From: Gammaproteobacteria bacterium
GTDB taxonomy: Bacteria > Pseudomonadota > Gammaproteobacteria > Pseudomonadales > UBA5518
Assembly: GCA_016718385.1 (NCBI GenBank)
Contig: JADKDK010000009.1
Coordinates: 44,311 to 108,310 of the forward strand
Length of the DNA stretch: 64,000 bases
Reading direction: 5' to 3'
Shown: piece by piece, positions 32,118-63,292 of the stretch
Position numbering within the stretch: position 1 is the first letter of the stretch
How the letters are laid out: the number at the start of each line of letters is the position of its first letter
Program-made: the position numbers and the translations under genes
The notes under the pieces: model-generated
Seen by the model: only the letters and a program-made list of their open reading frames with translations
Database searches by the model: none
What the model was told of the DNA's origin: nothing

Positions 32118-32120
32118 GGT

Positions 32121-48455: not shown

Positions 48456-48559
48456 CGCCCCCGCATGCCACGCTCGCGACACCGTTTACCGCTGCCGGGC
48501 GAACCCGGCTCGGCAGACAAGCGGGGGCGATCACACGGATACCGCGTGAACGTACACAA

Positions 48560-50164
48560 TCACGGCGCCGCAGCGTGGGTGATGGCAAGCAGTTCGATCG
48601 ACGGGGGAGCCAATGTCTGCGCAATCCTGACGTCGCCACCCTTGAGTGTCACCGTACTGAGTAGGCGAAAATCCCAGACGTCGTTGATCCGAAAGCGCTG
48701 CACCCGATAGAACTTTCGAGGATCCAACCCGGTCACGCGAAGATCGAAGCCGTCATTTCGCGCGTAACTCAGCGGGCGGCGCGGCAGCAGGTTTATCTTA
48801 TATCCGGCCCCGGCAATCGTGTCGCCATCAGGTCGTGGAGCGCGCAGACTGGCCGGCACCTCATAGTTGCTGATGATTATGTTGATCGTGTTGCTGTCCG
48901 TCGATTTTCCGGCCAGGACCGCCAGACCCTGATTGTCGTCGCCACTGACGTGGAGGCGAACCGGCGTATCCTTCATGCTTCCCAGCGCGACCATGGCCTG
49001 CCCGATCTTGTTGGGTGTACTCCCGTGCTCGCCGAACAGATTGGGGCCCATGTAGAAGGTCTGCTCGTCGATCGGGGAATCCTGCATGTAGATGATCGCC
49101 GATGCCGTGAAAGCCGCGCGTCCTCCCAGCGTCAGCAGTTCCGGATCGATACCGAGGACATTCCACTCGCTGAGCACGAGCCTGGTCTTCCTGAACCCGT
49201 GCGCGTCGAGCAGCGCGCGCATGTCGCGGGCAATACGCACGTACTGATACGGGTCCGCGGAATCTATCGCATAGTCGTGAAAGGACCAGAAATCGAGCGG
49301 CAACTTGTTGCGTCGCAGGTACTTCAGGAAATCTTCCCGATAGTCGGGGCCGTTGTAGTTGAACATCAGCGCCGGTCCTCCGATCGCGGCTTCAGGGTCA
49401 GCCGACTTCACTGCCCTCGCCAACTTCGCATACAGCGTGTAGTACTTGAGCGAATCGAAACGGCCATCCGGTTCGTTCAGGACTTCCCAATGCTCGACCC
49501 CGTAATTGAAGCCACTGTTCCATCCCTTGTTGTAATGCAGGACGATGTGACGGACGATTTCCGCATAATGTTCGAAATCCCGTTCGCTGGTGAAGGAATC
49601 CGGCACGCCGCTGTGTTCCCCCGCGCTGGCTCCGATCCTGAACAGCGGCTTGGCGCCAATGCCGTAGATGGACTGCAGCAGCCGGTCGGTGGGCCCGAAG
49701 TTGTAGCTGGCCGCATCGGCGGGGTCCGCATCAGGCTTCGGGAACATCACGAGTGCATTGAAGGCAGACGCAGGCACGAACGTGCCATCGGCCATTTCGC
49801 GTGTCCCCGTGAAGTTCGCATACACATCTCCCGGGCCGTAATTGTCGTGAATGCGGACCAGTTCGATGTTCGCCGCGCGATAACCGCTCGATGCATCCGC
49901 TCCGAGCGACCGATAACCTGTGCGATCGGACACCTCCACCACGTCATGGAGGCGCTCCACGGCCGGCCGGTCGCTCCATGGAAGCGGTCCCGAATTGACG
50001 CCGCGCAATGGCTTCATCGGTCCCAGGTCGCTCGACGCATCGACAGTGATCTCGCGCAACTCAGCCATGGTGCCCACTGCAACTGCCTGGGAATGGGCGG
50101 CCTGCGTGACAACCAGCAGGCACATGAATGCTGCCGCATTGATCGGATTGAATCGGCTCATCAT
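48560..50164 (-). CDS. Secreted glycoside hydrolase, clan GH-A (GH39-like)
   Basis: Signal peptide MMSRFNPINAAAFMCLLVVTQAAHSQA. The acid/base motif is HWEVLNEPD and the nucleophile motif is VLSEWN. Family-level assignment is by eye only. Confidence 0.55.
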   Translation of the reverse strand: MMSRFNPINAAAFMCLLVVTQAAHSQAVAVGTMAELREITVDASSDLGPMKPLRGVNSGPLPWSDRPAVERLHDVVEVSDRTGYRSLGADASSGYRAANIELVRIHDNYGPGDVYANFTGTREMADGTFVPASAFNALVMFPKPDADPADAASYNFGPTDRLLQSIYGIGAKPLFRIGASAGEHSGVPDSFTSERDFEHYAEIVRHIVLHYNKGWNSGFNYGVEHWEVLNEPDGRFDSLKYYTLYAKLARAVKSADPEAAIGGPALMFNYNGPDYREDFLKYLRRNKLPLDFWSFHDYAIDSADPYQYVRIARDMRALLDAHGFRKTRLVLSEWNVLGIDPELLTLGGRAAFTASAIIYMQDSPIDEQTFYMGPNLFGEHGSTPNKIGQAMVALGSMKDTPVRLHVSGDDNQGLAVLAGKSTDSNTINIIISNYEVPASLRAPRPDGDTIAGAGYKINLLPRRPLSYARNDGFDLRVTGLDPRKFYRVQRFRINDVWDFRLLSTVTLKGGDVRIAQTLAPPSIELLAITHAAAP

Positions 50165-50206
50165 CGTGTTGTCTCTCCCCTGTGGTACGCAGGCGCCTCT
50201 GGATCG

Positions 50207-51187
50207 TCAGACGCCACAAACGGTGATTGCCTGACGCAGTCCCTGTCTCGGATCACGCGTAGGGATGAATTCGTGACCGACGTAGCCCGAGTAGCCCGTT
50301 TCGACCAGCGTCCGCATTACCGCCGGATAATTGATCTCTTGACGATCGTCGAGTTCCCCGCGCCCGGGGTTGCCTGCCGTGTGCACGTGGCCTATGTGAT
50401 CCTTGCACTGGTGTATGCGACGGATCAGGTCACCATCCATGATCTGAACGTGATAGACGTCGAACAGAAGCTTGAGACGGGGTGATCCGACTCGTCGAAT
50501 GATGTCGATGCAGTAATCGACATGATCGCCCTGGTAGCCCGGATGCCCTTTCATCGGGTGCGAGTCGTCACGGCTGTTCAGCATCTCCAGGCACAGGGTC
50601 ACTCCTTTCTCCTCGGCGTGAGCGATGATTTGCCTGAAACCGTCGACGCAATTCCGCGCGCCCTCTTCAGGGGAGAGATGCGTGCTGTTCGGATCTTCCG
50701 GATTCCGTGTGCTGTAGCCCGTGAAGCAAACGACGTTCGGCGCCCCGAACGCCGACGCTGCATCGATGGCCTCGCGGGTTGCCCCGATCACGCGCGGCCA
50801 ATGCTCCGGGTTATTGAAACCCCGCAGGAATGGCGGCGCGGAGCCCATGTCGATCTGAGCGATCGCGCAGGTGAGACCATATCGTCCGAGGGTAGCGAAA
50901 TGTTCCGGCGTGACCAGTTCGACGCTATGGCAACCAAGCTCCCGAGCCACACGGCACGTTTGCTCCACGCTCCATCGTTCGCCGAATTGCCCGAAGCACC
51001 ACTGGACAATCGACTGCCTGATCCGGCCGCGGGCAGCGACCAGATCCGGCGCGGGTCCGGCATCCACCACCGACGCCTGCGTAGCGAGCAAGGTGCCAGT
51101 CATGGCCAGCGTGGCGGCGCGTTCCAGCAAGACGCGCCGGCTGACTTGCTCGACAAGCGGAGCAGAAGGAGGAATCGGTTTAGTCAT
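50207..51187 (-). CDS. Tat-exported TIM-barrel sugar isomerase/epimerase (hydroxypyruvate-isomerase-like)
   Basis: Twin-arginine signal VSRRVLLERAATLAMTGTLLA. Family blocks VTLCLEMLN, LKLLFDVYHVQIMDGD and HVHTAGNPGRGE. Confidence 0.7.
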   Translation of the reverse strand: MTKPIPPSAPLVEQVSRRVLLERAATLAMTGTLLATQASVVDAGPAPDLVAARGRIRQSIVQWCFGQFGERWSVEQTCRVARELGCHSVELVTPEHFATLGRYGLTCAIAQIDMGSAPPFLRGFNNPEHWPRVIGATREAIDAASAFGAPNVVCFTGYSTRNPEDPNSTHLSPEEGARNCVDGFRQIIAHAEEKGVTLCLEMLNSRDDSHPMKGHPGYQGDHVDYCIDIIRRVGSPRLKLLFDVYHVQIMDGDLIRRIHQCKDHIGHVHTAGNPGRGELDDRQEINYPAVMRTLVETGYSGYVGHEFIPTRDPRQGLRQAITVCGV

Positions 51188-51528
51188 GGCTGATTACCGG
51201 CATTGGAGGTTTCAGTGCATGTGGTACGACAACGATTACGGATTGACCCGAGCCGGCAGGTGCGACACACAATTTCCATCACCGCATGAAATCACCAGCC
51301 GTGCGAATCCGCTGCACACAAGGTCATCTCCCTGGCGGTCCGACCCGTCACCGAGCCCGAAGGTTGAACCCGACGGTTCGACGGACGCCGCATGGCGCAC
51401 GCAGCATGAGTGGTGGAGGCGCTTCCGCGCGACCGTGGGAGCGTACACATCTTTGCTCGCGTTGCCTCTTATCGTTGATAGGCCGTGCGCTTGCGCTGTC
51501 GCGATTCGGGAGCAGTCACTCGCTATCG

Positions 51529-51544
51529 ATGTAAACGTTTACAT
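51529..51544. promoter_or_regulatory. Perfect 16-bp LacI-family operator-like palindrome
   Basis: ATGTAAACGTTTACAT is perfectly self-complementary and is related to the 46035-46052 site. It lies about 340 nt upstream of the Tat TIM-barrel/GH operon start, in a 480-bp spacer. Confidence 0.6.
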
Positions 51545-51638
51545 TCTATCGACCAAAAAAACCAGGTGTCAACTCGTGAAAGAGCGTCCTCCTGTGCGCC
51601 AACCGCGGCGGGCTGGATTCGACCCGGAAGCGCTTCAC

Positions 51639-52096
51639 TCAGTCGGCGTCGAGCTGAACGACCTGGTTCACATGCCCTTCCGGATCGAGCACGAACGCTC
51701 AACTGAGCCGATGCGACTCGACGCGACGGATCGGATCGGATCGGATCGGCTCGGCTCGGCTCGGCTCGGCTCGGCCAGCGTGCCGCCGGCTGCCTCGGCG
51801 CGCCGCGCGAGAGCGTCGATATCGGCGGTGATGAAGCCCTGCACCGACTCGCCAACCGTCGGGGCGGCGGAATCCAGGTACTTGATCAGCGTCAGCGAAC
51901 CGCCACCGGGGTAGGTGGCCTGGAACGTGATCTCGTCGATCCTGCACCTGAGCATGACGTCCTGGTGCCGATCGAAACGGACCAGACCGAACACCTCCTC
52001 GTAGAACCCGGCCATTCCCTCCAGATCGTGCACGAAGATTTTGCTGAAGCCGTACTGCGCGTCGCGGGTGGCGCCGGATGGGCGAATTTCTGCCAT
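51639..52096 (-). pseudogene. VOC (glyoxalase/dioxygenase) family protein containing a pentanucleotide microsatellite; C-terminus out of frame
   Basis: ACGGAG-N6-ATG 52096 (MAEIRPSGATRDAQYGFSKIFVHDLEGMAGFYEEVFG...). The repeat encodes EPSRAEPSRSDPIRS. The family-typical end FVLDPEGHVNQVVQLDAD-stop (51639) is in another frame. The span is 458 nt (3n+2). Confidence 0.6.
51727..51775. repeat. Compound pentanucleotide microsatellite (CGGAT)4(CGGCT)5+CGGC
   Basis: Counted directly on the + strand. It contains four GATC sites at 5-nt spacing and lies inside the VOC ORF. Confidence 0.95.
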
Positions 52097-52132
52097 GGTC
52101 ACTCCGTTATTTCCAAAAATCGCTGAGCACAC

Positions 52133-52396
52133 TCAGCGCATCAGTGCACCACCATTGACGTGGCACACCTGTCCGTTGATCCAACGCCCGTCTTCAGAAA
52201 GCAGCATCGCGACCACTCCGGCGATGTCCTCTGGCTTGCCGACGCGACGCCCCGGAATCTTCGCCAGTTCCGAATCGATGAATTCCCGCGGAAGTTGTTC
52301 GCTCGCCCGCATGGCATCCGTCAAGGTGAAGCCGGGATCCCGCGTTGCACCCCGGCCCCGCCAGCAGGCGCCGTTGCCGCTTTTGGCACACGGCAC
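52133..52396 (-). pseudogene. SDR C-terminal fragment
   Basis: PGFTLTDAMRASEQLPREFIDSELAKIPGRRVGKPEDIAGVVAMLLSEDGRWINGQVCHVNGGALM is only the last 70 aa or so of an SDR. No Rossmann or catalytic part is found upstream. Confidence 0.55.
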
Positions 52397-52470
52397 GCCG
52401 GCATACAGCGCCCCCGCAACTCACCGAAACCACCACACCTGACGGGCACCGCGACACGGGAAGCTAAGTC

Positions 52471-52971
52471 ATGATCGAGTGCATTTTCCAGGGCAGCCGG
52501 GCGCTGGTACTGATCGCGGTGTTCGTGACCGCGGTGTCGTCCCTGCTGCTCTACGCGAGCAGGCTGAACGTGCTCGCGAACGTCGTGCTCGATTTCGCGC
52601 GGCAGGTGCCCGCAATGGTCGCCGAAGGCAAGGTGCTCGCGGTGCAGTTCCTGAAGTTGCTGAACCTCGATCACGCTGCACCTTATCGCGGCGAGCCTCT
52701 ACTGGCTGTTCGTGACGCCGCTGCGCGCGCGCGACAGTGCATTGCTATATATGCGTTGCAGATCACCACGTTCCACGACCTCGAGATCACGCTGGCGCCG
52801 GTGGCCGTCGTGATCATGGTGATCCTGTTCCTCGAGCAGATCGTGGCGAACGGAGCCTCGGTGGTCATGCTGGGCGCCGACGCGTACCAGACCAAGGCCG
52901 AGATCGCCGCCGACCGCTCGCGCGGAGTGCCCCCGATCGGCGTGGGGTACAGCTGCAGCATCCGGCGGTGA
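52471..52971 (+). pseudogene. YqhA/UPF0114-like membrane protein, at least two frame shifts and 3' truncation
   Basis: MIECIFQGSRALVLIAVFVTAVSSLLLY...FLKLLNLD is in frame 1. ITLHLIAASLYWLFVTPL is in another frame. Frame 1 then resumes with LQITTFHDLEITLAPVAVVIMVILFLEQ. The gene runs into the OYE-tail scar at about 52960. Confidence 0.45.
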
Positions 52972-53024
52972 TCTACGGCGGCGGCGAGGCGGGCTACATC
53001 GACTTTGCGCGCATGGCTGGCTGA
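52960..53024 (+). pseudogene. Orphan 3' end of an OYE gene (last 20 codons or so plus stop)
   Basis: Positions 52960-53030 match 31947-32017 (the end of the OYE gene plus 6 nt) at 69/71 nt and encode ...PAVIYGGGEAGYIDFARMAG-stop. Confidence 0.7.
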
Positions 53025-53061
53025 ACCGGCGGCGGCGCCATCGAATGCGGGAGAGCCCCGC

Positions 53062-54306
53062 TCAGGATCGGTAAGCCTCCCTGCCCACACCCTGCACGGG
53101 AATTCCCTGGCGCGGCAGCATCTCGTGCTGCAGCGCGTACATCGCGGCAGCAGCCTCGTCGATCGCCTTGACGAAGGCGATCGAACCGGCGAGCAGCGGC
53201 GCGAGCAGCGCGCGATCCTGGACCCGCGCCGGCGGATACTCGTGCTCGACCACGAGGTACGTGTTCGCCGGATCCAGCGGCAGCAGTTCGCGCGCCGCGA
53301 GCTGGTGATCCAGCCAGTCGACGGTCCGGTTCTGCAGATACCCCAGCGGATCGTGGCGCGCGGTGCCGGGCAGCTCGTGCTGGCTGAACACGGTCTGCTT
53401 CTTCCACGCGCTGGACTGCGCGGCGGGATCATCGGCGGGCATCGCGCCGTGCCAGTCGCCGCGCTGCAGGGTCTGCCCGCCGTAGCCCCAGGCGGCGAGG
53501 CCGCGCGGATCTATCACCTGCCCCTTCACATGGAACCCCGCCACCAGGAAGGCGTAGCCCGCGTCCTTCAGGTACTGGAAGACCGAGCGCGTATCCTGGC
53601 CCATGAGGATCGCGTGCGAGGGGTCGTAATGGATGCGGAACTGATCGCCGACGCCATGTTTCTCGCAGATCCGGTGCAGCGCGATCCACGGACCCGGAGC
53701 GTAGGCGATGTTGTTGTGCCAGGCGTCGTTCACCGTCCAGCCGGGCATCGGGCACTGCTCGACCCGGTAGGTGAGTCCGCGCGCCTTCGCTGCCGCGAGC
53801 AGTGGCACGAAGACTTCCTCGAACATCACCAGATTGGCGTCCATCTGCAGTTGCGGATTGCGCCCGACGAAGCCGCAGACGCCATCCACGCCGAGCATTG
53901 CCGCGGCGTCGAACACGCGCAGCATGAACTCGTGCTTGCGCCGGCGCACCCCTGCGTCGGCGGCCAGCATGTTGTCGAAGTACGCGAGATCCGAGAGCCC
54001 GACCGCGCTGGCGCACATCGCCGCGCGCACGCGTGCCGCTCGCCGCGCGTCGAAGGGTTCGCGCAGGTCGAGCGTATTGGCGACCGGATCGAGCAGCGCC
54101 GCGGCGGGCACGTCGCTGACGTCGGGATGCAACGCCGCGGAGAGCTGTATGTTCGGCGCGCCGATCTCGCGCGCGTACTCCAGCCACTCCTCGATGGCGA
54201 GATCCGGATCCGGGTCGCGCCGCTCGCGCGGCGTGAGTTCCTGCAGTGCCGCCGTGAGCACGCTGAGCTTCATGTGCCGGGGACGGAACGGCGCGCTCGC
54301 GCTCAT
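53062..54306 (-). CDS. Cluster B gene 6: TIM-barrel isomerase/epimerase-like protein (414 aa), paralogue of 38664..39908
   Basis: ATG 54306 overlaps the upstream stop (ATGA). [21 protein letters not shown]... is colinear with the cluster A copy. Confidence 0.65.
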
Positions 54307-55448
54307 GCGCTGATCTCCATCCAGGTCTGGCCCGCGCGACTGGACGCCAGCGTCGCTTCGATGAAGCGCATGCCCCGGACTCCGGCTTCGATGCCGGGGA
54401 AGCGCTCCTCCGCACCCGGCACGCCGTGGATCGCATCGGCAAAGCCGCGGTAGAGATTGGCCATGGCCTCGGCCAGCCCCTGCGGATGTCCGGGCGGGAG
54501 CTGGCTCGCCGTGCGCGCCAGCTCCGCATTGAAGCGTTGGCCGGGCGTGAACACCTGCCGCGGCGCGTCTTCGCGCAGATGCGTCAGGATCGCCGGCGTC
54601 TCGTGACTCCATTTCAATGCGCCGCGGCTGCCATAGACGGCGATCTGCACGCCGTTCTCCTCGCCCGTGGCGATCTGGCTCGCGCGCAGCACTCCATGCA
54701 CGCCGCAGGCCGTGCGCAACAGCGTCGTGCCGTCCACGTCCAGCGCATTGTCGGGACGGAAGGTGTCGAGATCCGCCAGCACGCGCGCAATGCGCAAGCC
54801 CGTGGTGTACTCCGCCAGGTTGAAGGCATGCACGCCGATGTCGCCATAGCAGCAACTCGGCCCCGATCGCGCCGGATCCAGCCGCCAGATCGACTGGCGC
54901 ATCGCCGCATCGTGCATGGCCGCGTTGATCCAGCCCTGGTAGTACTGCGCGTCGATCTTCTGCAGCGCACCGATCTCGCCGGCCGCGATCATCGCGCGCA
55001 TCTGCCGCACCATCGGGTAGCCCGTGTAGGTGTGAGCGATGCACACCTTGCGCCCGCCGTCCCGCGCGCGCCGTTCCAGCTCGAGCGCCTCGCTCGCGGT
55101 CATCGTGAACGGCTTCTCGCAGATCACGTGCAGCCCCGACTCCAGGGCCCGCAGCACCATCGGGTAGTGCAGGTGATTCGGCGTCAGCACCGCGAGCACC
55201 TCGATGCGCTCACCCTCGGCGAGCCGGCTCTCGGCCGCGAGCATCTCGTCGAGGCCTGCATATGCGCGCTCGGGGTCGAGACCGAGCGCCCGCGCGTGCG
55301 CGCGATTGCGCGAGACGTCGGTGCCGAATGCGCCCCCCTTCAGCTCGAAGCGCTCCGACAGCGCCGCCGCGGCGCGATGCACGCCGCCGATCAGCGAGCG
55401 CGGGCCACCGCCGACCAGGCCGAGCGGAATACGACGCGAGACGTTCAT
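54303..55448 (-). CDS. Cluster B gene 5: Gfo/Idh/MocA family oxidoreductase (381 aa)
   Basis: ATG 55448 overlaps the MFS stop (ATGA). [34 protein letters not shown]. Confidence 0.85.
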
Positions 55449-56674
55449 TGCTCCGCCTCGGGCGCCACGGTCGCCACCGTATCGCGGAACAGCAACAGGA
55501 AGGCCCCGGAAACGACGAGTGCGAAGCCCGACGGGAACAGCCACACCTCGCGCCAGTCGTGCCCGGCGGCGAGCGTGTAGCGGTCGGTGATCATGCCCGC
55601 GATCCAGAAGCCGATCAGCATGCCGAGCCCGTAGGTGGCCAGCGTGACCAGTCCCTGCGCCGAGGCCTTGAAGCGCGGGCCTGCGCGCGCGTCGGTGTAG
55701 ACCTGCCCGGCCACGAAGAAGAAGTCGTAGCACACACCGTGCAGCGCGATGCCGACCAGCAGCATCCACAGCAGCTCGCTGGCGTTGCCGAAGGCGAACA
55801 GCGCGTAGCGCAGGGCCCACGCGAGCATGCCCAGCAGCAGCGTGCGCCTGAAACCGAAACGGTGGAAGAACCACGGCAGCAACAGGATGAAGCCGGCCTC
55901 CGATATCTGCCCGATCGTCATCTTGCCCGTCGGATTCGCCACGCCCGCCTCGGCGAGGAACAGGTTCGCATTCTGGTAGTAGAACGCGAGCGGCACGCAG
56001 ATCAGCACGGCCGAGCAGAAGAACACCGCGAAATTCCGCTCCTTCAGCAGGCCCAGGGCCTCGACCCCGAGCAGCGCGCGCACCTGCGACTCGCCGCCAC
56101 GCACCGGCGGCGTCGCCGGCAGCGAGAAGCCGTAGAGACCGAGCACAGCCGAGGCAACAGCCGCGAGCAGGAAGGTGTTGCGCAACGCGCCCGCGGCGAT
56201 GTTCGCGCGATCGTCCCACGCGAACGCGTAGCTGATCGCGAGCCCTGCGACGATCCAGCCCACGGTGCCCCACATGCGCACGGGCGGGAACTCCGTCGTG
56301 GTGTCGCGCATCTGGCGGAAGCACACCGCGTTGGCGAGAGCGAGCGTCGGCATGTAGACGATCATGTAGGCGAGCGCCAACGGATAGAACGAGGCGAACT
56401 CCGGCGCCGCGTACATGCGCCACAGCAGCACCGCGCCGGCCAGGTGCAGCAGCGCGAATATGCGCTCGGCGTTCACGAAGCGGTCGGCGACCAGGCCCAC
56501 GAAGAGCGGCGCGACAATGGCACCCCAGGACTGCGTCGCGAAGACCAGGCCGGTCTGCTCCCCGCTGGCGCGCAGGTTGGTCGCGAGGAATGTACCCAGC
56601 GTCACGAACCAGGCTCCCCACACGAAGAACTGCAGGAACATCATCAGGCACAGCCGCGCGCGCATCCTGGACAT
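55445..56674 (-). CDS. Cluster B gene 4: MFS transporter, nucleoside:H+ symporter-like (409 aa)
   Basis: ATG 56674, MSRMRARLCLMMFLQFFVWGAWFVTLGTFL. Confidence 0.8.
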   Translation of the reverse strand: MSRMRARLCLMMFLQFFVWGAWFVTLGTFLATNLRASGEQTGLVFATQSWGAIVAPLFVGLVADRFVNAERIFALLHLAGAVLLWRMYAAPEFASFYPLALAYMIVYMPTLALANAVCFRQMRDTTTEFPPVRMWGTVGWIVAGLAISYAFAWDDRANIAAGALRNTFLLAAVASAVLGLYGFSLPATPPVRGGESQVRALLGVEALGLLKERNFAVFFCSAVLICVPLAFYYQNANLFLAEAGVANPTGKMTIGQISEAGFILLLPWFFHRFGFRRTLLLGMLAWALRYALFAFGNASELLWMLLVGIALHGVCYDFFFVAGQVYTDARAGPRFKASAQGLVTLATYGLGMLIGFWIAGMITDRYTLAAGHDWREVWLFPSGFALVVSGAFLLLFRDTVATVAPEAEQ

Positions 56675-56691
56675 GAGGCCGGCTCCCCGCG

Positions 56692-58382
56692 TCACACCCT
56701 GCCGCCACGCACTTGTTCGACCGCATGGTTCGCAGCCCGCGCGGTGAGCGCCATGAAGGTGAGCGAGGGATTGACCACGCCGCAGGAGCTCATGCTGGAA
56801 CCATCGGTGACGAAGAGATTGGGCACGTCGTGCGACTGGTTCCAGCCGTTCAGCACCGATCGCTGCGGGTCGCGGCCCATGCAGGCCCCGCCCATTTCGT
56901 GAATCGCGTCCCCGGGCGTGGAGGGCGTCGCCACCGACAGCACGTTCTGCAGGCCCGCGCCCTCGAGCATCGCCCGTGCCTGCTGCGCCGCGTCCTGCAG
57001 GAGCTTCTTCTCGTTGTCGCGAAAGCGCACGTCGAAGCGCACCTGCGGCATGCCGTGCCGGTCGACGAGCTTCGGATCCAGCGTGATCCGGTTCTCCGCG
57101 TAGGGAAGGCACTCCCCAAAGCCGGCGAGGAAGAACGCCCAGGCGGGCGGCTGGCGCAGCGCCTGCTTGAAGCCCGCGCCGAAGCCCGGGATCGCGGTGG
57201 CGATCATCGGCGCCTCCAGCGCCATCGCGCCGCCCTGGAAGCCGTAGCCGCGCAGGAATTCGCCGTCGGGCTCCTGTGCATCGAGGTTGCGAAAGCGTGG
57301 TATGTAGATCCCGTTGGGGCGATAGCCGTAGTAATACCTGCCCATGAACTCGGTGGTGATGCCGAAGGCGATGGCGCCGTTGACGTGATCCATCACGTAG
57401 CGCCCGAGCATGCCGCTGCGGTTCGCGAGACCCTGGGGGAAGCTCTCGGAGCGCGAGTTCAGCAGCACCTGCACGCTGCCGATGGTGGAACCGCAGAGAA
57501 AGACGAGCCTCGACCCGAAGCGCGTACGCGCGCCGGTTTCCGTGTCGATGACGCGCACGCCCGTGACACGCCCGCGTGCCGCGTCGTAGTCGATTCCTCG
57601 ACGAGGCTGTTCGCGCGCAGCGTGAGATTGCCGGTGCGGCTCGCTGCCGGCAGCGTCGAGCTCAGGCTGCTGAAGTACGCACCCGGCGAACAACCGCGCT
57701 GGCACACGCCGCAGTAGTGGCAGGCGGCGCGGTCGCCGAGCGGTTCGGTGAGATTCGCGACCCGGCCGATGGTCATGCGCCGCGCGGGAAACTGTGCCTC
57801 GATCCGCTGTTTCATGGCCTTCTCGACCACGGACATCTGCATCGCCGGCTGGAACACGCTGTCCGGCAGTTGCACCAGCTGCTCGGCCTGGCCGCTCACG
57901 CCGATGAAACGCTCGACGTGTGCGTACCACGGCTCGAGGTCGCGGTAACGGATCGGCCAGTCGACGCCGTGGCCGTCGCGCCGGTTTGCCTCGAAGTCCA
58001 GATCGCTCCAGCGATAGACCTGCCGCGCCCAGAGCAGCGACTTGCCGCCGACCACGTCGGCGCGAAGCCAGTGGAAAGGTGCATCCTGCGCTTGCGTGTA
58101 CGGGTAGTCCGAATCCTTGACCCAGAAGTGCCGCGTGGTCTCGTCGAAAGCATAGGATTTGCTCTGCACCGCGTAATCGCGCGCGTAGAGCTCGCGCAGC
58201 GGCTTGCCGCCGAAGGGAATCTTCCACGGCGGCGTGTGTTCGGTGGTGTAACCGGAACCGTGCGTCAGCGGCCTGCCGCGATCGAGGACCAGCACCTTCA
58301 GGCCCTTCTCGGTGAGCTCCTTCGCGGCCCAGCCCCCCGTGACACCCGAACCGACCACGATGACGTCGAAATCCATGCTCAT
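56692..58382 (-). pseudogene. Cluster B gene 3: GMC family FAD-dependent oxidoreductase, 1-nt deletion near 57596-57597
   Basis: ATG 58382 (MSMDFDVIVVGSGVTGGWAAKELTEKGLKVLVLDRG) runs to ...LRANSLVE in ORF 57459..58445. The continuation (G)IDYDAARGRVTGVRVID... is in ORF 56692..58227. The span is 1691 nt against 1692 nt for the intact cluster A paralogue. Confidence 0.85.
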
Positions 58383-58463
58383 TCCCCGATCCTCTTGTCG
58401 TTTTCGCGCGTCAGGCCCGTTACGCCCCTCGACCTTGCGCCGCACTACACGCCCTGCCGGCGC

Positions 58464-59066
58464 TCAGTGACTCCAGTGCGTCCCCACCTTGGCGAAGTCG
58501 AAGTCACCGTCGTAGCGCATGGGCATGGGGTTGTATTCGAGGAACTCCGTGGCCCCGAGTTCGGAGCTGAAATAGCCCACCACTGTCAGCTCCTTGAGCT
58601 TGGCGAAGAACGGCGTGCGCTCATCGATCAGTTTCGCCATCGTCGCCAGGAATCCCGGCGGAAGCGGACTCACGTAAGCGGCGGCGTTCTTCTCGGCCTC
58701 GGAGAGTGCCGCAACACGCTGCTCGGCGGTGCACCCGAGGAAATCCGTGCCGTAGGCGGTGCGGCAGGACGCATCGAGCGCCGCGAGGCCGTCGAGAAAG
58801 ATCCCGCGCTCGGTATCGGTGTACCAGTCGGCGACCATCATCTCGATGAAACGCGGCACACCGGCCTCGATGGCGCCCGGCGTATCCGTCGCGGGGAGGA
58901 TCATCTCGGCGAGCACGCGCACCATCTCCGGCTGGTGGCCCTGCAGCACCACCCGGGATGCCGAGGTGGTCGGCGCCTCGCCGGCAATCACGCGCAGCGT
59001 GGGCGAGCCGACCATGACCCCGGCCATCGTGGATATGGCCGCCAGCATCATTTCACGTCGGTTCAT
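58464..59066 (-). CDS. Cluster B gene 2: gluconate 2-dehydrogenase subunit 3-like Tat small subunit (200 aa)
   Basis: MNRREMMLAAISTMAGVMVG..., ATDTPGAIEAGVPRFIE, ELTVVGYFSSELG. Confidence 0.7.
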   Translation of the reverse strand: MNRREMMLAAISTMAGVMVGSPTLRVIAGEAPTTSASRVVLQGHQPEMVRVLAEMILPATDTPGAIEAGVPRFIEMMVADWYTDTERGIFLDGLAALDASCRTAYGTDFLGCTAEQRVAALSEAEKNAAAYVSPLPPGFLATMAKLIDERTPFFAKLKELTVVGYFSSELGATEFLEYNPMPMRYDGDFDFAKVGTHWSH

Positions 59067-59089
59067 CGCGATTCACTCCCTGTAGGCAT

Positions 59090-59983
59090 TCATTCACAAT
59101 CGAGCGGCATCGGCGAGGCCGCGGGAGAGCCGATACGACCTGCCCAGGCGATCGCGCGCTGCAGCAGCCCACGGTACTGCGGCTCGGCGAATGTCTCCGC
59201 GGTATGCCCCAGCGCGGCATAGAACACCCGGCCCTGGCGCACGCAGTGCTTCCAGATCATCGGGTGGTCCGCGCCCATCGCGAGCGAGGTGCCGTCGAAG
59301 AATTCGCCCGGTGCGTAGCTGCTCTCGTCGATCGTCGCCAGCACGCGGATATCCGGCGCGCGCGGGCTCTTCGCAAAGGAGTACCACTCGTCGGTACGCT
59401 GCCATTCCGTGCCGAGCGGCGCGACGATCGGGTCCGCGGGCTGCTCGATGCGCAGGGTCGCCTGCTGGAATTGCGGGGCCATCGGATGACCGATGAACTG
59501 CGCGCGGATCACCGTGTCGAGGTACCACGGCCACGGCGCGTGACTGTTGTCGCCGGCGGCATGGATGCCGACGTAGCCGCCGCCCTGCTCCAGCCAGGAC
59601 TGGAACGCCTCGCGCTGTTGCGGCAGCAGCACGTCGCCGGTGACGTTGTTCCACACGACCACGTCGAAGTGCGCCAGATCCTCTGCATTGAACACGGCGC
59701 CGCTGTCGGTGAGGAAGACGCTCCAGCCCTGCTCGCCCGCCATCTGCTGCAGCAACTGCTTCGCGGCAGGTATCGCTTCCTTGTGGATAAAGGAGTTTGT
59801 CTTGGAGAACACCAGCACCGCCGGGTGCTGCAACGGCGGCAGCTGCGGGCGCTCGGTCTCGAACACGGGGCTGCGCAGGAATCCCATCGATCGTACCTGC
59901 CAGACGCCATAGCCGGCAAACGCCAGTGCGGCCACCAGCAGAACCCCGAGCACGCGCCAGCACCAGCGCCAACGTGTAGTCAT
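59090..59983 (-). CDS. Cluster B gene 1: ThuA-domain protein with N-terminal membrane anchor (297 aa)
   Basis: ATG 59983 (MTTRWRWCWRVLGVLLVAALAFAGY), VLVFSKTNSFIHKEAIPAA, GGGYVGIHAAGD. Confidence 0.7.
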   Translation of the reverse strand: MTTRWRWCWRVLGVLLVAALAFAGYGVWQVRSMGFLRSPVFETERPQLPPLQHPAVLVFSKTNSFIHKEAIPAAKQLLQQMAGEQGWSVFLTDSGAVFNAEDLAHFDVVVWNNVTGDVLLPQQREAFQSWLEQGGGYVGIHAAGDNSHAPWPWYLDTVIRAQFIGHPMAPQFQQATLRIEQPADPIVAPLGTEWQRTDEWYSFAKSPRAPDIRVLATIDESSYAPGEFFDGTSLAMGADHPMIWKHCVRQGRVFYAALGHTAETFAEPQYRGLLQRAIAWAGRIGSPAASPMPLDCE

Positions 59984-60138: not shown

Positions 60139-63100
60139 CTACGGCGAAACCTCCGCCAGGATCGCCGGCCCGATCAGCCCGGCGGCCACCAGCTGGTGCT
60201 CGTAGCCCTTCATGTGCGAGTAGTGCGGGTCGCCGGCCAGCGCACGGCCCACGAAATAATTCCGCAGCGGCGCCAGCACCTCGACCTCGACGCTGTTCTC
60301 ACCCTGCTGCAGCGCCGTGGTGACATCGAGCAGAAAGGGTGGAACCCCCGCGCGACCGATGTCCCGACCGTTGACCCGAACCATGGCCGTGCCCTGCACC
60401 AGCCCCAGATCCAGCAGATAGCGCGCGCCCGGGCGGGGCCCGTCGAGGACGAAACGATGCGTATACACGCCGGGGCCGCGTGCGTGACGGAGCAGCGGAT
60501 CCTCGCGCCAGTCCCCGAGTTCCGTGGACTGCCCCGGCGCACCGTCCATCGCCAGTTCCCAGTCCGCGAGCGGCCAGCTGCGCGCGGGATGCTGCAGCGC
60601 CACGCTGTCGGCAATGCGCAGGGGCAACGTCGCCGGCATCGGCACGCCGCGGATCAGGAAGCGGCTCTCGTAACCCAGCAGCGCCAGGGACAAGCTGCCG
60701 TCGGTCGTCTCGGCCGGCCATGCCGCGCCGCTCATCGCATCGAACCACCATAGCGCCTGGCCGGCCTCGGCCTGCAACTGCAGCGTCTGCGCTGTCGCGC
60801 CCTGATTGGCAAACAGGAGGATGTCCTGCTGCGCGTCGAGCTGGCGCCGGAAGCTGCGGATCGCTCCCCGGGTGAGATGGCGCACCGGCGCCAGGATCCG
60901 CTCCTGCAGCGCATCGGCCAGCGACGCCGCGTCCAGGGAGCGCTGCTCGGCGCCGTCCGCGATCAGTTGCGACACGAGTTGCTGCACCTCGCGATCGCCC
61001 TGCGCCGCGTCCAGATAGCCCGGTTGACGTTCGGGAAGCGCTCCGGCGAATACGACGGGAACGCCCTCGGCCTCGAGGCCCGCGAGCGCGTGCAGCGTCT
61101 GCTGCTCGATCATCGGCGCATTGGCCACCAGCACCGCCTGGTAACTGCCGCCAGAGGCCGTCAGCGTGCGCGCGCCGATCTTCCCGCCCTGCAGCGCGTG
61201 GTCGTTGACCCAGCCCCAGCTGATGCCGCGCCGGTCGAGTTCTCGCACCAGCGGCAGCAGCGTGCGCACCCACGCGTCGCGCTCGTCTTCCTGCTTCGGC
61301 GGAAGCGTGAACACCGCATCCAGCGTCTTTTTGCCACTGGTCAGCACCGGATCCTCGCGCACATCGACCGGCGGATCCGCATCGGGAATGGAGCCGTTCA
61401 GCAGCGGCTCGGGCTCGCCGGCCTCGGGGTTGGCCCCGTGAAAGCCGAGGAACGGGTAGTAGATCAGCACGTCGATCGCGGGACGCCCCTGGCGCAGCAG
61501 GTTCTGGCTGCGCGCGATATAGCGATTGATCGCCGGCACGTCCGCCCAGAGCACCGGGTTGTTCGGACCGACGATCGACGAGAAATGCGCCGGGTTCTGC
61601 GGCCCGCTGAACGGCGTCCAGCCCTCTTCGCCGTAGGGCTTCGACGCGTCAGCTGTCCACGGGTAGGGCGTGCCGTGGTGGACGATGTGGTTCACGCCCG
61701 CGAGCAGCAGCTTGTCGGCGGCGGCCTTGAGCTTGCGCGGCGTGGTGGTCCAGTCGCGCTGGATCCACACGAAGGACTCGGCGCTCACCAGCGGCCTCCC
61801 GTAGAGCGCCGCCGCGGAGCTCGCCATCTTGAGCCCGAGGTCTGAGCCTCCGGCCCAGAGCTGCTCGGTCTCGGGGATCGTGTTCGCCCCCAGCGCGCGC
61901 AGCACATCGAGATCCATGCCGTAGCTCTGCCCGCGCGAGACGAGTCCGCGCTGCGCCGCCCATGAGGCTGACGTCTCGACGAAGCGCTCGATCACGAGAT
62001 CCGACAAGGTCTTCTGGTAGTCGTGGCGGATGCGCTCGTCCTGCGCCGTCAACTCGAACTCCGGTGCCGCGTGGATGCCGACGATCTCGCGAAAATACAC
62101 GTTGTCCTTGCCCTCGACGTAGATCGCGGGCAGCAGCGGCTCCAGGTCGTAGCCGCGGCGCGCCCTGAACTCCGGCAGGATGTCCTCGACGCTCATGCGC
62201 TTGAGGCGGAATTCCAGGCTGTCGTTGAAGAAGCCGCGCAAGCCCTTGCCATAGTGCGCGGGCAGCCCGGTGCGTTTGCCGAAGGCGTATTCGTAGTGGC
62301 CCAGCACCTGCGGCTTGCGCAGGTGATCCACGACGAAGCCCTGCGGCTTTTGCGCCGCGCCCATCGGCACCTCGCCCGAGGGCAGCAGGTAGCTCGCGAT
62401 GATCTGCCACTCGCCGGGCGGCGCCTCCCAGTGGAGCACACCGCTCTCGACCCGGGCCGTCAGCACCTGCACCGAGGCCGGATCGAGCGTGACGGTATCG
62501 TCGAGATCGAAGGGACTCCAGCCGTGTTCGCCCGCAACCACTCGCGCGGCGAGCACGCTGAGCAGGCGTGCGTTCGCGGCCGGGAAGTTGATGAAGTCGG
62601 CTCCCGTGAATTCCATCGCCGTGAAGATGTATTCGCTCGCGCCCGCGCCCGGCTTCGGAAGTTCGAGCGCGACGGTCCTGCCGCCCTTCACCCTGTGCGC
62701 GGCGTGGGCGATCACCGTGAGGCTGTCGGCCAGATTGATTTCGGGACCGCCCGGCGGCCAGCCACTGAAGTGCGTGAGGTCGAGTTGCATGCCTCGCTCG
62801 GCGGCCGCGAACATCACGGCATCCAGCGTCCGGTAGTACGGCGGCTTGTCGAAACCGTAGACACGCTCCCAGGTGGCCTCGTTCTCGATATTGAGCATGC
62901 CGCTGAGGAAGGGCTGCACCTCGCCGCCACCGAAGCCCGCGGCGTCGAGTTCGTCGAGCTGACGCGTGAGCGTGGCGGCATCCACGTCGCCGCCCGGCCA
63001 CCACCAGCGCGTCCAGGGCCGCGCCGACTTCGGCGGCGTGAGTATCGTGTCCCAGCTGAAACCGGAGACCAGCTCGGGCGGTTGCGCCGGCGCCACGGGC

Positions 63101-63267
63101 GCGGGCTCGACGTAAGAGGCGATGCTCGGCTGCCCTGAAGGATCCGGCGGCGGCGCGAGGTGCTGGCTCGTCTTGTGGACGACCCAACCGACGCCGCCGA
63201 GCGCGAGCAAGATCAGCAGCGCGATCAGCACCGCGATGACAGACGCGATACGCTTCACGATTGACAT
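60139..63267 (-). CDS. Large membrane-anchored glycoside-hydrolase-like protein (GH106 / alpha-L-rhamnosidase-like)
   Basis: GAGGG-N8-ATG 63267 (GTG 63276 is also open). TM anchor IASVIAVLIALLILLALGGVGWVV. The N-terminal block ARPWTRWWWPGG...LDELDAAGFGGGEVQPF recalls this family. The assignment is tentative. Confidence 0.45.
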   Translation of the reverse strand: MSIVKRIASVIAVLIALLILLALGGVGWVVHKTSQHLAPPPDPSGQPSIASYVEPAPVAPAQPPELVSGFSWDTILTPPKSARPWTRWWWPGGDVDAATLTRQLDELDAAGFGGGEVQPFLSGMLNIENEATWERVYGFDKPPYYRTLDAVMFAAAERGMQLDLTHFSGWPPGGPEINLADSLTVIAHAAHRVKGGRTVALELPKPGAGASEYIFTAMEFTGADFINFPAANARLLSVLAARVVAGEHGWSPFDLDDTVTLDPASVQVLTARVESGVLHWEAPPGEWQIIASYLLPSGEVPMGAAQKPQGFVVDHLRKPQVLGHYEYAFGKRTGLPAHYGKGLRGFFNDSLEFRLKRMSVEDILPEFRARRGYDLEPLLPAIYVEGKDNVYFREIVGIHAAPEFELTAQDERIRHDYQKTLSDLVIERFVETSASWAAQRGLVSRGQSYGMDLDVLRALGANTIPETEQLWAGGSDLGLKMASSAAALYGRPLVSAESFVWIQRDWTTTPRKLKAAADKLLLAGVNHIVHHGTPYPWTADASKPYGEEGWTPFSGPQNPAHFSSIVGPNNPVLWADVPAINRYIARSQNLLRQGRPAIDVLIYYPFLGFHGANPEAGEPEPLLNGSIPDADPPVDVREDPVLTSGKKTLDAVFTLPPKQEDERDAWVRTLLPLVRELDRRGISWGWVNDHALQGGKIGARTLTASGGSYQAVLVANAPMIEQQTLHALAGLEAEGVPVVFAGALPERQPGYLDAAQGDREVQQLVSQLIADGAEQRSLDAASLADALQERILAPVRHLTRGAIRSFRRQLDAQQDILLFANQGATAQTLQLQAEAGQALWWFDAMSGAAWPAETTDGSLSLALLGYESRFLIRGVPMPATLPLRIADSVALQHPARSWPLADWELAMDGAPGQSTELGDWREDPLLRHARGPGVYTHRFVLDGPRPGARYLLDLGLVQGTAMVRVNGRDIGRAGVPPFLLDVTTALQQGENSVEVEVLAPLRNYFVGRALAGDPHYSHMKGYEHQLVAAGLIGPAILAEVSP

Positions 63268-63292
63268 CTTGCTCACCCTCTCGATTCGTTCG

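Follow-up and report, generated by a model that had tools for sequence, protein, structure and literature searches.

The window (the whole stretch of DNA that was analysed, 64 kb in length) holds two colinear six-gene clusters, A (45925-38664) and B (59983-53062), which keep the same gene order across ~6.9 kb. In the reading that we consider probable, B is the resident copy, A is a xenolog from a close relative of the MAG that L093 stands for, both are glycoside 3-keto operons, and the lesion found in B3 is an error. To judge from their sequences, A and B are xenologous copies of one operon type rather than sisters. The insertion that brought in A is directly supported by the sequence, and its donor is what we infer. 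The resident locus would have been B together with a GH106 gene and the receptor TBDR-B. A would have arrived later, within a 21-kb segment that entered the 3' end of an Oxidored_FMN gene directly downstream of B6 and left a 71-bp direct repeat. This segment, donated by a lineage close to the L093-type MAG, would have added a further receptor, another AdhE and more sugar genes, together with its own LacI repressor and two operators, and its esterase would have decayed since arrival. The import of a second operon would then be a fairly ordinary example of bacterial diet expansion.

Cluster B and its upstream neighbours comprise the following features.

59090..59983, minus strand: B1, ThuA-domain protein anchored in the membrane by its N-terminus (hydrophobic in the translation), 297 aa, 72% identical to A1
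58464..59066, minus strand: B2, small subunit with a twin-arginine signal (starts MNRR), Gluconate_2-dh3 family, 200 aa, 64% identical to A2
56692..58382, minus strand: B3, catalytic subunit of a GMC-family FAD dehydrogenase, broken by a 1-nt deletion at 57596; the repaired product (563 aa) is 79% identical to A3
55445..56674, minus strand: B4, NupG/LacY-like MFS permease, 409 aa, 75% identical to A4
54303..55448, minus strand: B5, Gfo/Idh/MocA NAD(P)-dependent oxidoreductase, 381 aa, 71% identical to A5; best PDB sequence match 3v5n, 3e-77
53062..54306, minus strand: B6, xylose-isomerase-like TIM-barrel protein, 414 aa, 78% identical to A6
60139..63276, minus strand: glycosidase of the GH106 family (alpha-L-rhamnosidase family), 1045 aa, PF17132 at 2.4e-48; NCBIfam AlphaRhamBT4145 also matches, under its cut-off
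63512..64000, minus strand: TBDR-B, 3' end of a TonB-dependent receptor gene running off the window, 162 aa present, 75% identical to the TBDR-A C-terminus; in other assemblies the full protein has 825 aa, Plug plus barrel

Cluster A and the receptor gene downstream of it are as follows.

45032..45925, minus strand: A1, ThuA-domain protein, 297 aa, Pfam ThuA at 1.7e-57; the L093 homologue is 93% identical, dS 0.22
44404..45009, minus strand: A2, Tat small subunit, 201 aa, PF13618 at 7e-37, starts MNRR
42661..44352, minus strand: A3, GMC dehydrogenase (Pfam), 563 aa, dS 0.63 vs L093
42295..42660, minus strand: esterase remnant with two internal deletions, aligning piecewise to an intact 410-aa Abhydrolase_3/BD-FAE gene in L093; a Pfam search of the remnant gave no match
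41050..42273, minus strand: A4, MFS permease, 407 aa, PF03825 at 8e-113
39905..41050, minus strand: A5, Gfo/Idh/MocA oxidoreductase (Pfam families), 381 aa
38664..39908, minus strand: A6, TIM-barrel protein, 414 aa, weak PF01261 match at 1.6e-9
36124..38622, minus strand: TBDR-A, TonB-dependent receptor (Pfam)

The gene-for-gene homology proposed in the sequence-only reading is borne out by two colinear BLASTN blocks of the window against itself, one of 77.9% identity over 3617 bp (38677-42274 vs 53075-56675) and one of 75.1% over 3221 bp (42690-45863 vs 56721-59921). The 3' ends of the receptor genes match at 77.2% (36134-36612 vs 63522-64000). DNA identity between A and B is thus 75-78%. The copies are diverged at the protein level as had been judged by eye, but the measured identity of 64-79% is slightly lower than the 70-85% estimated. 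All six pairs of product lengths agree with the values given earlier (B3 after one G is added), and gene calls from other assemblies confirm the overlapping start and stop codons at the last two junctions of both copies, with overlaps of 1 and 4 nt in A and of 4 nt each in B. Also genuine are the paralogous receptors, A's LacI operator and esterase remnant, and the glycosidase-like gene between B and its receptor. Between A and B genes dS is 0.57-0.98, with a per-gene dN/dS of 0.15-0.30 across the pairs, and pN/pS within the species is ~0.2 for A and for B; purifying selection appears still to act on both operons.

The segment that carries A is bounded by a direct repeat.

32018..53030, no strand: inserted segment, 21,013 bp, precisely missing from L010 and L183, mostly syntenic with L093
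31947..32017, plus strand: left copy of the 71-bp repeat, made up of the terminal 65 nt of the Oxidored_FMN gene (old-yellow-enzyme family) and 6 nt more
52960..53030, plus strand: right copy of the repeat, 31 bp from the B6 stop codon
33061..35808, minus strand: AdhE2, fused aldehyde/alcohol dehydrogenase on the insert, dS 0.21 vs L093 AdhE and 0.53 vs AdhE1
19641..22406, minus strand: AdhE1, resident paralogue of AdhE2 outside the insert, dS 0.49 vs L093 AdhE

The cargo consists of an SDR, AdhE2, TBDR-A, cluster A, LacI, glyoxalases, GH39, a 326-aa TIM barrel and several gene remnants; gene annotations place no integrase or transposase within the 21,013 bp. At its end the insert matches the methylmalonyl-CoA mutase gene (25831-25869) over 39 bp at 97%, and it also holds a 3' fragment of an SDR there. 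The repeat copies agree at 69 of 71 bases (97%), and since A and B are only 77% identical, their juxtaposition should be much younger than the split between them. The empty site is seen in sequence in two conspecific contigs, L010 (99.2-99.5% identical to the window) and L183 (95-98% identical, from a different project), where one repeat copy joins Oxidored_FMN straight to the sequence downstream of B6. The two repeat copies of the window share at most 43 bp without a mismatch, so a k=55 assembly graph should not fuse them in error. A 789-kb contig of GCA_016705225.1 also appears to be without the insert, as suggested by the spacing of accession numbers, with a NuoM-B3 gap of 19 against 39 in an insert-bearing MAG; the same assembly carries the insert on a separate 29.9-kb contig.

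Comparison with L093 points to the source of the segment. The order of genes in L093 is LacI-ThuA-small subunit-GMC-esterase-MFS-Gfo-TIM-AdhE-SDR, and most of the insert is syntenic with it at 87-95% nucleotide identity; the proteins are 90-98% identical, with dS of 0.13-0.26. A3 is mosaic in this comparison, a block from ~44,500 to 43,050 having 69-88% identity and the remainder 93-97%. TBDR-A is not in L093 and has a lower GC3 (0.79). The NuoM of the L093-type MAG, tied to its cluster via the adjacent GenBank accessions MCG3169564/MCG3170544/MCG3170548, is 86% identical to that of the window, and nuoM dS is 0.47, a value taken from the cluster representative L100 as a proxy for the MAG's own nuoM. 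The low dS of the insert, against ~0.5 for the nuoM proxy and AdhE1, therefore argues that A is a horizontally acquired xenolog. The dS of GH106 against L093 is 0.68. The B genes give 0.55-0.97 (about 0.75) against the L093 cluster, exceeding nuoM, so B would not be a case of simple vertical descent either.

The sequence-only reading had left the choice between old paralogy and a second acquisition; A and B are indeed old relative to the assembly, and the evidence favours acquisition. An ancient tandem or segmental duplication of operon, receptor and AdhE within the genome, followed by slow divergence and sub-functionalisation, is nevertheless the strongest alternative, although we regard it as unlikely. 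It would account for adjacent copies in the same orientation, each with a paralogous receptor and with a paralogous AdhE nearby, both under purifying selection, and for GH106 adjoining the A-type cluster in L093 as it adjoins B in the window. The empty sites would then be secondary deletions between the 71-bp repeats, a common type of event that could in principle recur, and L093 would be a close relative retaining A only. However, this reading has to accommodate a repeat far better conserved than A and B themselves, an empty site that two datasets show in sequence and a third implies, among them a more diverged strain at 95-98% identity, and a segment much closer to L093 than the nuoM proxy and AdhE1 are. 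In addition, the neighbour-joining tree of GMC proteins places A3 with P0002/P0005 and B3 with P0009/P0007, not as sisters. Sub-functionalisation toward two related substrates is plausible, but it implies divergence after in-genome duplication; as duplication in place is not what appears to have happened, that proposal is unsupported as it was stated.

Less likely still is a relocation within the genome, in which A and B would be old paralogues at distant loci, the A-segment would have moved beside B recently, and the empty-site strains would keep A elsewhere. The insert does end with short pieces resembling resident genes (methylmalonyl-CoA mutase and SDR), and the GC3 of A genes is similar to that of B genes. 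Yet the A-segment contig of GCA_016705225.1 runs into the left flank of the window (SnoaL), not into another locus, and the segment is closer to the L093-type MAG than housekeeping genes are.

A replacement in progress, with B pseudogenised because the acquired A makes it redundant, seems very doubtful. It draws on the intact state of A and on the interruption of the catalytic subunit of B: alignment of B3 to A3 shows one G absent in GAGGGAATC, at 57596, within a GGG run. The earlier one-base repair was right in that a G is missing and 563 aa result once it is restored. The lesion is, however, private to the source assembly: in seven of the seven other assemblies compared at this position the G is present and B3 is intact, and outside the deletion B3 is identical to L007, L010, L011 and L012, free of further lesions. 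Oxidored_FMN has another private deletion, at 31250, and the methylmalonyl-CoA mutase gene is broken into three ORFs, as is typical of error-prone assemblies. The frameshift is thus most likely an error of the source assembly, probably of sequencing, rather than biology.

A chimera of assembly or binning, with an A-segment from another population misjoined beside B, is hardly credible: misjoins at repeats do occur in MAG assemblies and in one MAG the two haplotypes occupy separate contigs, but both junctions recur across independent assemblies made by different methods (on 3.03-Mb, 513-kb and SPAdes contigs among others), a 42-kb contig runs from B through the entire insert to Oxidored_FMN, and the arrangement or one junction is found in at least five other independent conspecific assemblies, in keeping with the earlier claim that this is not an assembly duplication.

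Under the favoured acquisition from an L093-like lineage, the insert would also have brought its own regulation.

46183..47193, plus strand: LacI-family repressor (Pfam), divergent from A1, 98% identical to the L093 LacI; start codon set from 336-aa calls in other assemblies
46037..46050, no strand: perfect LacI-type operator TGTAATCGTTTACA (motif match) in the LacI/A1 intergenic region
51530..51543, no strand: second LacI-type operator, the perfect palindrome TGTAAACGTTTACA (motif match), upstream of the 326-aa TIM barrel/GH39 pair

These two operator matches are the only ones in the window and both lie within the insert, whose regulation by its own LacI and two predicted operators appears self-contained.

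Both clusters, with their TonB-dependent receptors, are predicted to encode a variant of the glycoside 3-dehydrogenase/3-keto-glycoside pathway. The glycoside would enter the periplasm through the receptor, where a Tat-exported flavoprotein dehydrogenase, its GMC catalytic subunit carried by the small twin-arginine subunit, would oxidise the sugar ring, presumably at C3, possibly assisted by the membrane-anchored ThuA-like protein. The NupG/LacY-like permease would take up the keto-glycoside or its keto-sugar, the cytoplasmic 414-aa TIM-barrel enzyme would cleave or rearrange it by beta-elimination and/or hydration, and the Gfo/Idh/MocA enzyme would reduce the keto-sugar to an ordinary hexose. 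In the PDB the GMC protein comes closest to the catalytic subunits of fructose dehydrogenase and FAD-glucose dehydrogenase (1e-40), and the cysteine motif CHYCGxCQRGC is kept in both copies. None of the six cluster proteins reached an NCBIfam equivalog cut-off. The AF2 model of A6 (pTM 0.81) finds ketose 3-epimerases, UlaE, xylose isomerase and AtHYD (8ro4) by Foldseek at 10-18% identity, matches at the level of the fold superfamily; the 414-aa protein may act as a lyase, hydratase, epimerase or isomerase.

[quoted passage not shown] Caulobacter LacABC, with a neighbouring transporter, epimerases and a reductase, is needed for the use of lactose and salicin (PMC9007349, PMC8121099). The cluster described here differs from the characterised systems in being without a cytochrome c subunit, a DUF1080 hydrolase and a second TIM barrel. 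Its grouping of 414-aa TIM barrel, MFS, Gfo and GMC genes recurs in dozens of metagenome contigs.

Clusters A (45925-38664) and B (59983-53062) both lie on the minus strand and carry six genes in the same order. The gene products are listed below with their Pfam matches, and the percentages are protein identities between the A and B copies:

Gene 1 (A1, B1): ThuA-like protein, Pfam ThuA, with a hydrophobic N-terminal anchor; 72%
Gene 2 (A2, B2): Tat small subunit, Pfam Gluconate_2-dh3 (PF13618, 7e-37), with a twin-arginine motif at the start of both copies; 64%
Gene 3 (A3, B3): GMC dehydrogenase, Pfam GMC_oxred_N/C, signal peptide absent; 79%
Gene 4 (A4, B4): NupG-type MFS permease, Pfam Nuc_H_symport / LacY-like MFS; 75%
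Gene 5 (A5, B5): Gfo/Idh/MocA protein, Pfam Gfo/Idh/MocA, signal peptide absent; 71%
Gene 6 (A6, B6): 414-aa TIM barrel, weak match to Pfam AP_endonuc_2 (xylose-isomerase-like TIM barrel), signal peptide absent; 78%

Comparison of the window with itself returned two colinear A/B blocks, 38677-42274 against 53075-56675 (77.9% identity, 3.6 kb) and 42690-45863 against 56721-59921 (75.1% identity, 3.2 kb), in agreement with the six-gene colinearity claimed in the sequence-only reading. The 3' ends of the TonB-dependent receptor (TBDR) genes also match in this comparison (36134-36612 against 63522-64000, 77.2% identity). The gene lengths given in that reading were reproduced by translation, whereas the amino-acid identity, put there at 70-85%, is lower as measured (64-79%). 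For the individual gene pairs, the Nei-Gojobori dS is 0.57-0.98 and dN/dS is 0.15-0.30. The sole structural difference within the clusters is the gap between genes 3 and 4, about 370 bp in A versus a 17-bp spacer in B. An esterase remnant had also been claimed for A, and the intact esterase (410 aa) of L093, a contig of another MAG with an A-like cluster, indeed aligns piecewise to 42295-42660.

Cluster A is carried on an insert of 21,013 bp. The self-comparison of the window revealed a direct repeat of 71 bp at its boundaries, with 69 of the 71 bases identical between the two copies:

31947-32017: left repeat copy, the 3' end of the Oxidored_FMN gene
32018-53030: insert, carrying a short-chain dehydrogenase (SDR), the fused dehydrogenase AdhE2, the receptor TBDR-A, cluster A, LacI, glyoxalases, GH39 and a 326-aa TIM barrel
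52960-53030: right repeat copy, 31 bp from the stop codon of B6

Two contigs from different projects, L010 (99.2-99.5% identical to the window) and L183 (95-98%), show the empty site: the sequence runs from B6 through a single repeat copy into Oxidored_FMN, and exactly the 21,013 bp between the repeats are missing. From the spacing of accession numbers we infer a third empty site on the 789-kb contig of GCA_016705225.1, on which NuoM and B3 are 19 accession numbers apart versus 39 in an insert-bearing MAG, and DUF3293 and B3 are 11 apart, matching the expectation for a contig with no insert. The same assembly also has the insert, joined to the left flank, on a separate 29.9-kb contig, so both haplotypes coexist in one community. 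A k=55 misjoin at the repeats in L010 is unlikely, since no stretch of more than 43 identical bases is common to the repeat copies and since this contig shows Oxidored_FMN-type variants followed by B6-side sequence. An assembly chimera is excluded, because the insert of the window recurs with the same junctions in GCA_017988445.1, GCA_964267855.1 (on a 3.03-Mb contig), GCA_016716075.1 and the ENA contig L011; this recurrence across independent assemblies also upholds the earlier statement that the two clusters are not an assembly duplication.

The repeats are 97% identical versus 77% between A and B, which shows that A came to lie next to B long after the two had diverged. Single-crossover (Campbell-type) integration at a 71-bp homology would produce such a repeat structure; no integrase, transposase or other mobility gene was found among the called genes of the insert or their Pfam matches. 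The insert also contains several gene stumps, namely the remnant of the esterase, fragments of HTH_18 and luciferase genes and the 3' end of an SDR. Close to its right boundary, 52132-52311 (minus strand) codes for a C-terminal piece (59 aa) of a short-chain dehydrogenase that is related to the intact SDR (32121-32894). At the left end, in the stretch from the 71-bp repeat to the stop codon of the SDR, 32032-32070 matches 25831-25869 (39 bp, 97% identity), which is mutase coding sequence (peptide TGFGKGMAWA) 6 kb off; 32032-32070 resembles a piece of a gene that the insert carries at its edge.

In a neighbour-joining tree of the GMC subunits with their closest database relatives, A3 groups with P0002 and P0005, and B3 with P0009 and P0007. 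Considering this grouping, and that A resembles L093 far more than it resembles B, the two clusters are not sister copies. L093, which carries P0002, has the order GH5-GH106-glyoxalase-luciferase-glyoxalase-LacI-ThuA-small subunit-GMC-esterase-MFS-Gfo-TIM-AdhE-SDR. The amino-acid identities of the A region to L093 are 98% for LacI, 93% for ThuA, 95% for both MFS and Gfo, 96% for both TIM and AdhE, and 96.5% for SDR, and the insert genes have dS values of 0.13-0.26 to it. The nearest relatives of B (contigs L096 and L097) have the order LacI-cluster-TBDR and a dS to B of 0.35-0.78.

As a housekeeping yardstick for the dS comparison, nuoM was used; the nuo operon for NADH:quinone oxidoreductase (nuoG, nuoL, nuoM, nuoN) occupies 1-10928 at the left end of the window. 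Shared sample identifiers gave no link from the L093 organism to a housekeeping gene, and an exact look-up of the NAD_binding_2 protein of the window returned no record. Three proteins were linked to one 'Pseudomonadales bacterium' MAG by consecutive GenBank accession numbers only (L093-type GMC MCG3170544.1, its TIM barrel MCG3170548.1, NuoM MCG3169564.1). Its TIM barrel falls within the 90% cluster of A6, and its NuoM is 86% identical to that of the window. The nuoM dS to the window is 0.47, with the gene of the cluster representative as a proxy. The resident AdhE1 has a dS of 0.49 to the AdhE of L093, and the insert AdhE2 a dS of 0.21. Housekeeping and resident genes are thus near 0.5 and insert genes near 0.2, which argues that the two organisms came to share the insert only after their divergence. 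The B genes have dS values of 0.55-0.97 to the L093 cluster, above that of nuoM; B, too, is no simple ortholog of this cluster, and the operon family evidently moves among related bacteria. These comparisons point to another lineage as the origin of the insert, with B as the resident and A as the horizontally acquired copy. Between old paralogy and a second acquisition, left as alternatives in the sequence-only reading, the insert, the empty sites and the low dS to L093 favour the acquisition. B is the resident operon, and A is a xenolog gained by horizontal transfer on a 21-kb insert for which the population is polymorphic. As a phenomenon, side-by-side xenologous catabolic operons are ordinary. 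A resident operon beside an imported xenolog, in a population polymorphic for the import, provides a dated natural experiment, and whether the copies are redundant or specialised is testable through the polymorphism.

The insert is a mosaic. L093 lacks TBDR-A, GH39 and the 326-aa TIM barrel, whose GC3 is also lower (0.70-0.79 versus about 0.87-0.92). Only these three genes deviate; in GC3 and codon composition the six genes of A and B are alike, so that composition is uninformative on a foreign origin of the six. Within A3, a block at 43050-44500 (about 1.4 kb, the 5' two-thirds) is 69-88% identical to L093, versus 93-97% for the rest of the A region, and reads as a recombinant block. A3-B3 gene conversion was rejected as the cause of the divergence of A3 from L093, the divergent block being no closer to B3, L096 or L099. 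It is noted that the fused aldehyde/alcohol dehydrogenases of the window, resident (19641-22406) and on the insert (33061-35808), are 83% identical in amino acids and 84% in nucleotides, and that their upstream 40 bp (22454-22493 and 35808-35847) are 87.5% similar.

Within-species differences are mainly synonymous in both clusters (summed pN/pS about 0.2 both in A, compared with other assemblies, and in B, compared with L183), and the cofactor and metal-site motifs are kept in both copies; on these grounds both copies appear functional. Gene by gene, cluster B of the window matches that of GCA_017988445.1 exactly (B3 once the G at 57596 is restored), whereas cluster A and GH106 show pS values of up to 0.04 to this assembly. 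Such unequal divergence suggests that strains have recombined recently.

Two matches to the LacI-family operator consensus TGNAANCGNTTNCA were found in the 64-kb window, both within the insert:

46037-46050: predicted operator in the LacI/A1 intergenic region
51530-51543: predicted operator, a perfect palindrome TGTAAACGTTTACA, 343 bp upstream of the 326-aa TIM barrel / GH39 pair

The second match suggests that the 326-aa xylose-isomerase-like TIM barrel (hydroxypyruvate-isomerase-like) and GH39 belong to the same LacI regulon as cluster A. This separate TIM barrel, at 50207-51187 on the insert, is under its own LacI-type operator, and its counterpart is absent from B. No comparable LacI-type operator was found upstream of B1 or GH106, and an inverted-repeat search near B1 gave no operator-like palindrome. 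Since the only LacI-type operators in the window lie inside the insert, the imported module is predicted to be self-regulated; on this prediction, the regulator of B must be encoded beyond the window.

The small subunits A2 and B2 begin with MNRRHLL and MNRREMM, respectively, each followed by a hydrophobic stretch. The GMC subunits have the N-terminal FAD-binding GxGxxG motif (GSGVSGG in A3 and GSGVTGG in B3), and the best PDB matches of A3, over the full length, are the catalytic subunits of fructose dehydrogenase (7w2j) and FAD-glucose dehydrogenase (6a2u), at 1e-40 to 8e-38. Both A3 and B3 contain the Cys motif CHYCGxCQRGC, which we take to bind the 3Fe-4S cluster in these two enzymes. A5 has three Gfo/Idh/MocA Pfam domains and finds its best PDB match, among uncharacterised Gfo-family structures, in 3v5n (3e-77). 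None of the six products reached an NCBIfam equivalog cut-off. No cytochrome Pfam family was found in the genes of either cluster or in the called neighbours, and no CXXCH motif was seen by eye in the six products.

When a genome collection was scanned with the GMC alignment, the relatives among the matches listed were at most 62% identical, the species of the window and its close relatives not being among them. Among the matches listed, the GMC/small-subunit pair is widespread, unlike the complete six-gene set. In more distant relatives (L099, which is ENA contig_28454, L014, L016 and L019), ThuA, small subunit and GMC are kept together, with other TIM barrels, Gfo genes and transporters substituted downstream, so the dehydrogenase module seems interchangeable.

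Family membership and gene context suggest how A and B might operate. The TBDR would take up a glycoside, the GMC/Tat complex would oxidise it at C3 in the periplasm, the MFS permease would then import the oxidised product, and the TIM barrel and the Gfo reductase would act in the cytoplasm. Neither a second TIM barrel (hydratase) nor a DUF1080 hydrolase is among the six genes, and the pathway would be a new architectural variant of the known 3-keto-glycoside route. This oxidative mode of glycoside cleavage was recognised only recently as a widespread alternative to glycoside hydrolases. The combination of a ThuA-like protein, GMC-Tat pair, NupG-type permease, Gfo protein and one large TIM barrel with TonB-dependent receptors is an uncharacterised layout, common in environmental Gammaproteobacteria and soil metagenomes. 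The locus is of the TonB-dependent-receptor carbohydrate utilisation (CUT) type, in which a TBDR is encoded together with an inner-membrane transporter, with degradative enzymes and with a regulator. In A these are TBDR-A, the MFS permease, the enzymes, and LacI plus operator; in B they are TBDR-B, GH106, the permease and the enzymes, with no regulator found within the window. Given the differing receptors, regulators and accessory enzymes, different substrates for A and B are plausible. The neighbours (GH106, of the rhamnosidase family, by B; GH39 and the 326-aa TIM barrel by A; and the esterase intact in the relatives of A) suggest plant-type glycosides in general rather than a particular substrate.

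Rhizobium and Agrobacterium deglycosylate natural-product glycosides by oxidation, elimination, hydration and reduction, using an FAD glycoside 3-dehydrogenase (co-expressed with a TAT-signal protein), a beta-eliminase and a hydratase (both sugar-phosphate-isomerase-like TIM barrels) and a Gfo reductase (PMC10628242). The GlycDH operon of A. tumefaciens / Rhizobium sp. GIN611 shares with A and B an FAD dehydrogenase with a small twin-arginine protein, a Gfo/Idh/MocA protein and a xylose-isomerase-like TIM barrel in one operon, and its four-step logic fits their gene set. In contrast, A and B have one TIM-barrel gene each, whose 414-aa product is much longer than AtOGE (C-terminal region ends at Gln259, PMC10628242), and have the ThuA-like protein, the NupG-type permease and the TonB-dependent receptors as extras.

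The LacABC 3-dehydrogenase of Caulobacter crescentus acts on several glycosides (lactose, salicin, raffinose), and growth on lactose and salicin requires it along with the transporter, epimerases and reductase encoded nearby (PMC9007349, PMC8121099). The likeness lies in a periplasmic membrane-associated GMC-type 3-dehydrogenase encoded beside a transporter, epimerase-like proteins and a reductase. Caulobacter also has periplasmic DUF1080 3-keto-glycoside hydrolases, which are absent in A and B. LacABC has three components, one of them presumably a cytochrome c going by GapMind step names, whereas A and B have no cytochrome c gene. Likewise, the fructose dehydrogenase of Gluconobacter (7w2j) and the FAD-glucose dehydrogenase of Burkholderia (6a2u) resemble the clusters in the small Tat 'hitch-hiker' subunit; they differ in having a multi-haem cytochrome c subunit, in oxidising free sugars rather than glycosides and in their low identity to A3.

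In gut bacteria, BT2156-BT2160 of Bacteroides thetaiotaomicron and the AL cluster carry out stepwise oxidation, elimination and hydration by a non-Koshland route (PMC8121099; bioRxiv 10.1101/2024.03.25.586180). Their Gfo/Idh/MocA and sugar-phosphate-isomerase-like modules, interchangeable between organisms, recall A and B; however, Gfo-family enzymes perform the oxidation there in place of a GMC flavoprotein, DUF1080 is present, and ThuA and the NupG-type permease are absent. ThuAB, the trehalose/sucrose 3-dehydrogenase of Sinorhizobium/Agrobacterium, is similar, as cited in PMC8121099, in that a ThuA-domain protein and a Gfo/Idh/MocA protein are co-encoded and 3-keto-disaccharides are made. 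The ThuA of A and B differs in being membrane-anchored and in adjoining the GMC gene rather than Gfo, and the clusters have no ThuEFGK ABC transporter.

We regard the 414-aa TIM barrel as the most interesting unknown of the locus. A PDB sequence search found no relative, and no NCBIfam model matched. Its AlphaFold model (30 homologues) has a pLDDT of 76 and a pTM of 0.81, with residues 265-322 forming a disordered, low-confidence insertion. Foldseek placed the model in the xylose-isomerase-like superfamily with ketose 3-epimerases, UlaE and xylose isomerase, at 10-18% identity. The best fold matches are epimerases and isomerases; AtHYD (8ro4, a 2-hydroxy-3-keto-glucal hydratase) ranks 31 at 16% identity, and AtOGE and the C-glycoside eliminases are outside the top 50. 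The protein is strongly conserved: hundreds of database proteins, including those of Steroidobacter species, are 75-81% identical, and this identity is maintained across Gammaproteobacteria and many soil-metagenome contigs. Among the matches listed from a metagenome scan with the TIM-barrel alignment, its usual neighbours are this MFS permease (about 62% identity) and genes for a Gfo and a GMC protein; the scan also yielded L183, the second of the empty-site contigs. The lack of a PDB sequence relative or NCBIfam model, the high conservation and the NupG-like permease that is almost always adjacent make it conceivable, if rather doubtful, that the protein represents an uncharacterised enzyme class, a candidate 3-keto-glycoside lyase/hydratase that would do in a single polypeptide what the separate eliminase and hydratase do in Agrobacterium. 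If so, the resident and imported operons, with their different regulators and outer-membrane receptors, would form two substrate channels, one of which might take rhamnosylated glycosides (GH106) and the other formerly acylated glycosides (decayed esterase).

In B3 a GGG run is short of one G, at 57596. The G and a 563-aa product are present in each of the seven other assemblies compared at this position, and B3 is otherwise identical to four of the seven. A second private deletion, of a single C at 31250, breaks the Oxidored_FMN gene (old-yellow-enzyme family); the C and a 364/365-aa product are present in 4/4 compared assemblies. At 24441-26204 (minus strand), the large-subunit gene of a methylmalonyl-CoA mutase appears broken up into three ORFs that overlap (135, 142 and 336 aa), reflecting either indel errors of this assembly or a pseudogene; its neighbours are a B12-binding small subunit (24019-24504) and a MeaB/ArgK-like GTPase (23072-24055), all three names resting on the reading of translations. 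Considering the second deletion, the split mutase gene and the intact B3 elsewhere, the B3 frameshift is treated as an assembly artefact, which fits the pattern of an error-prone assembly. For MAG annotation this is a caution that a 'pseudogene' frameshift can be an assembly error, exposed through sister assemblies. Finally, a SnoaL-like gene contains an internal 340-bp repeat (28923-29261 and 29469-29807, 71% identity), which corresponds to its two SnoaL domains.
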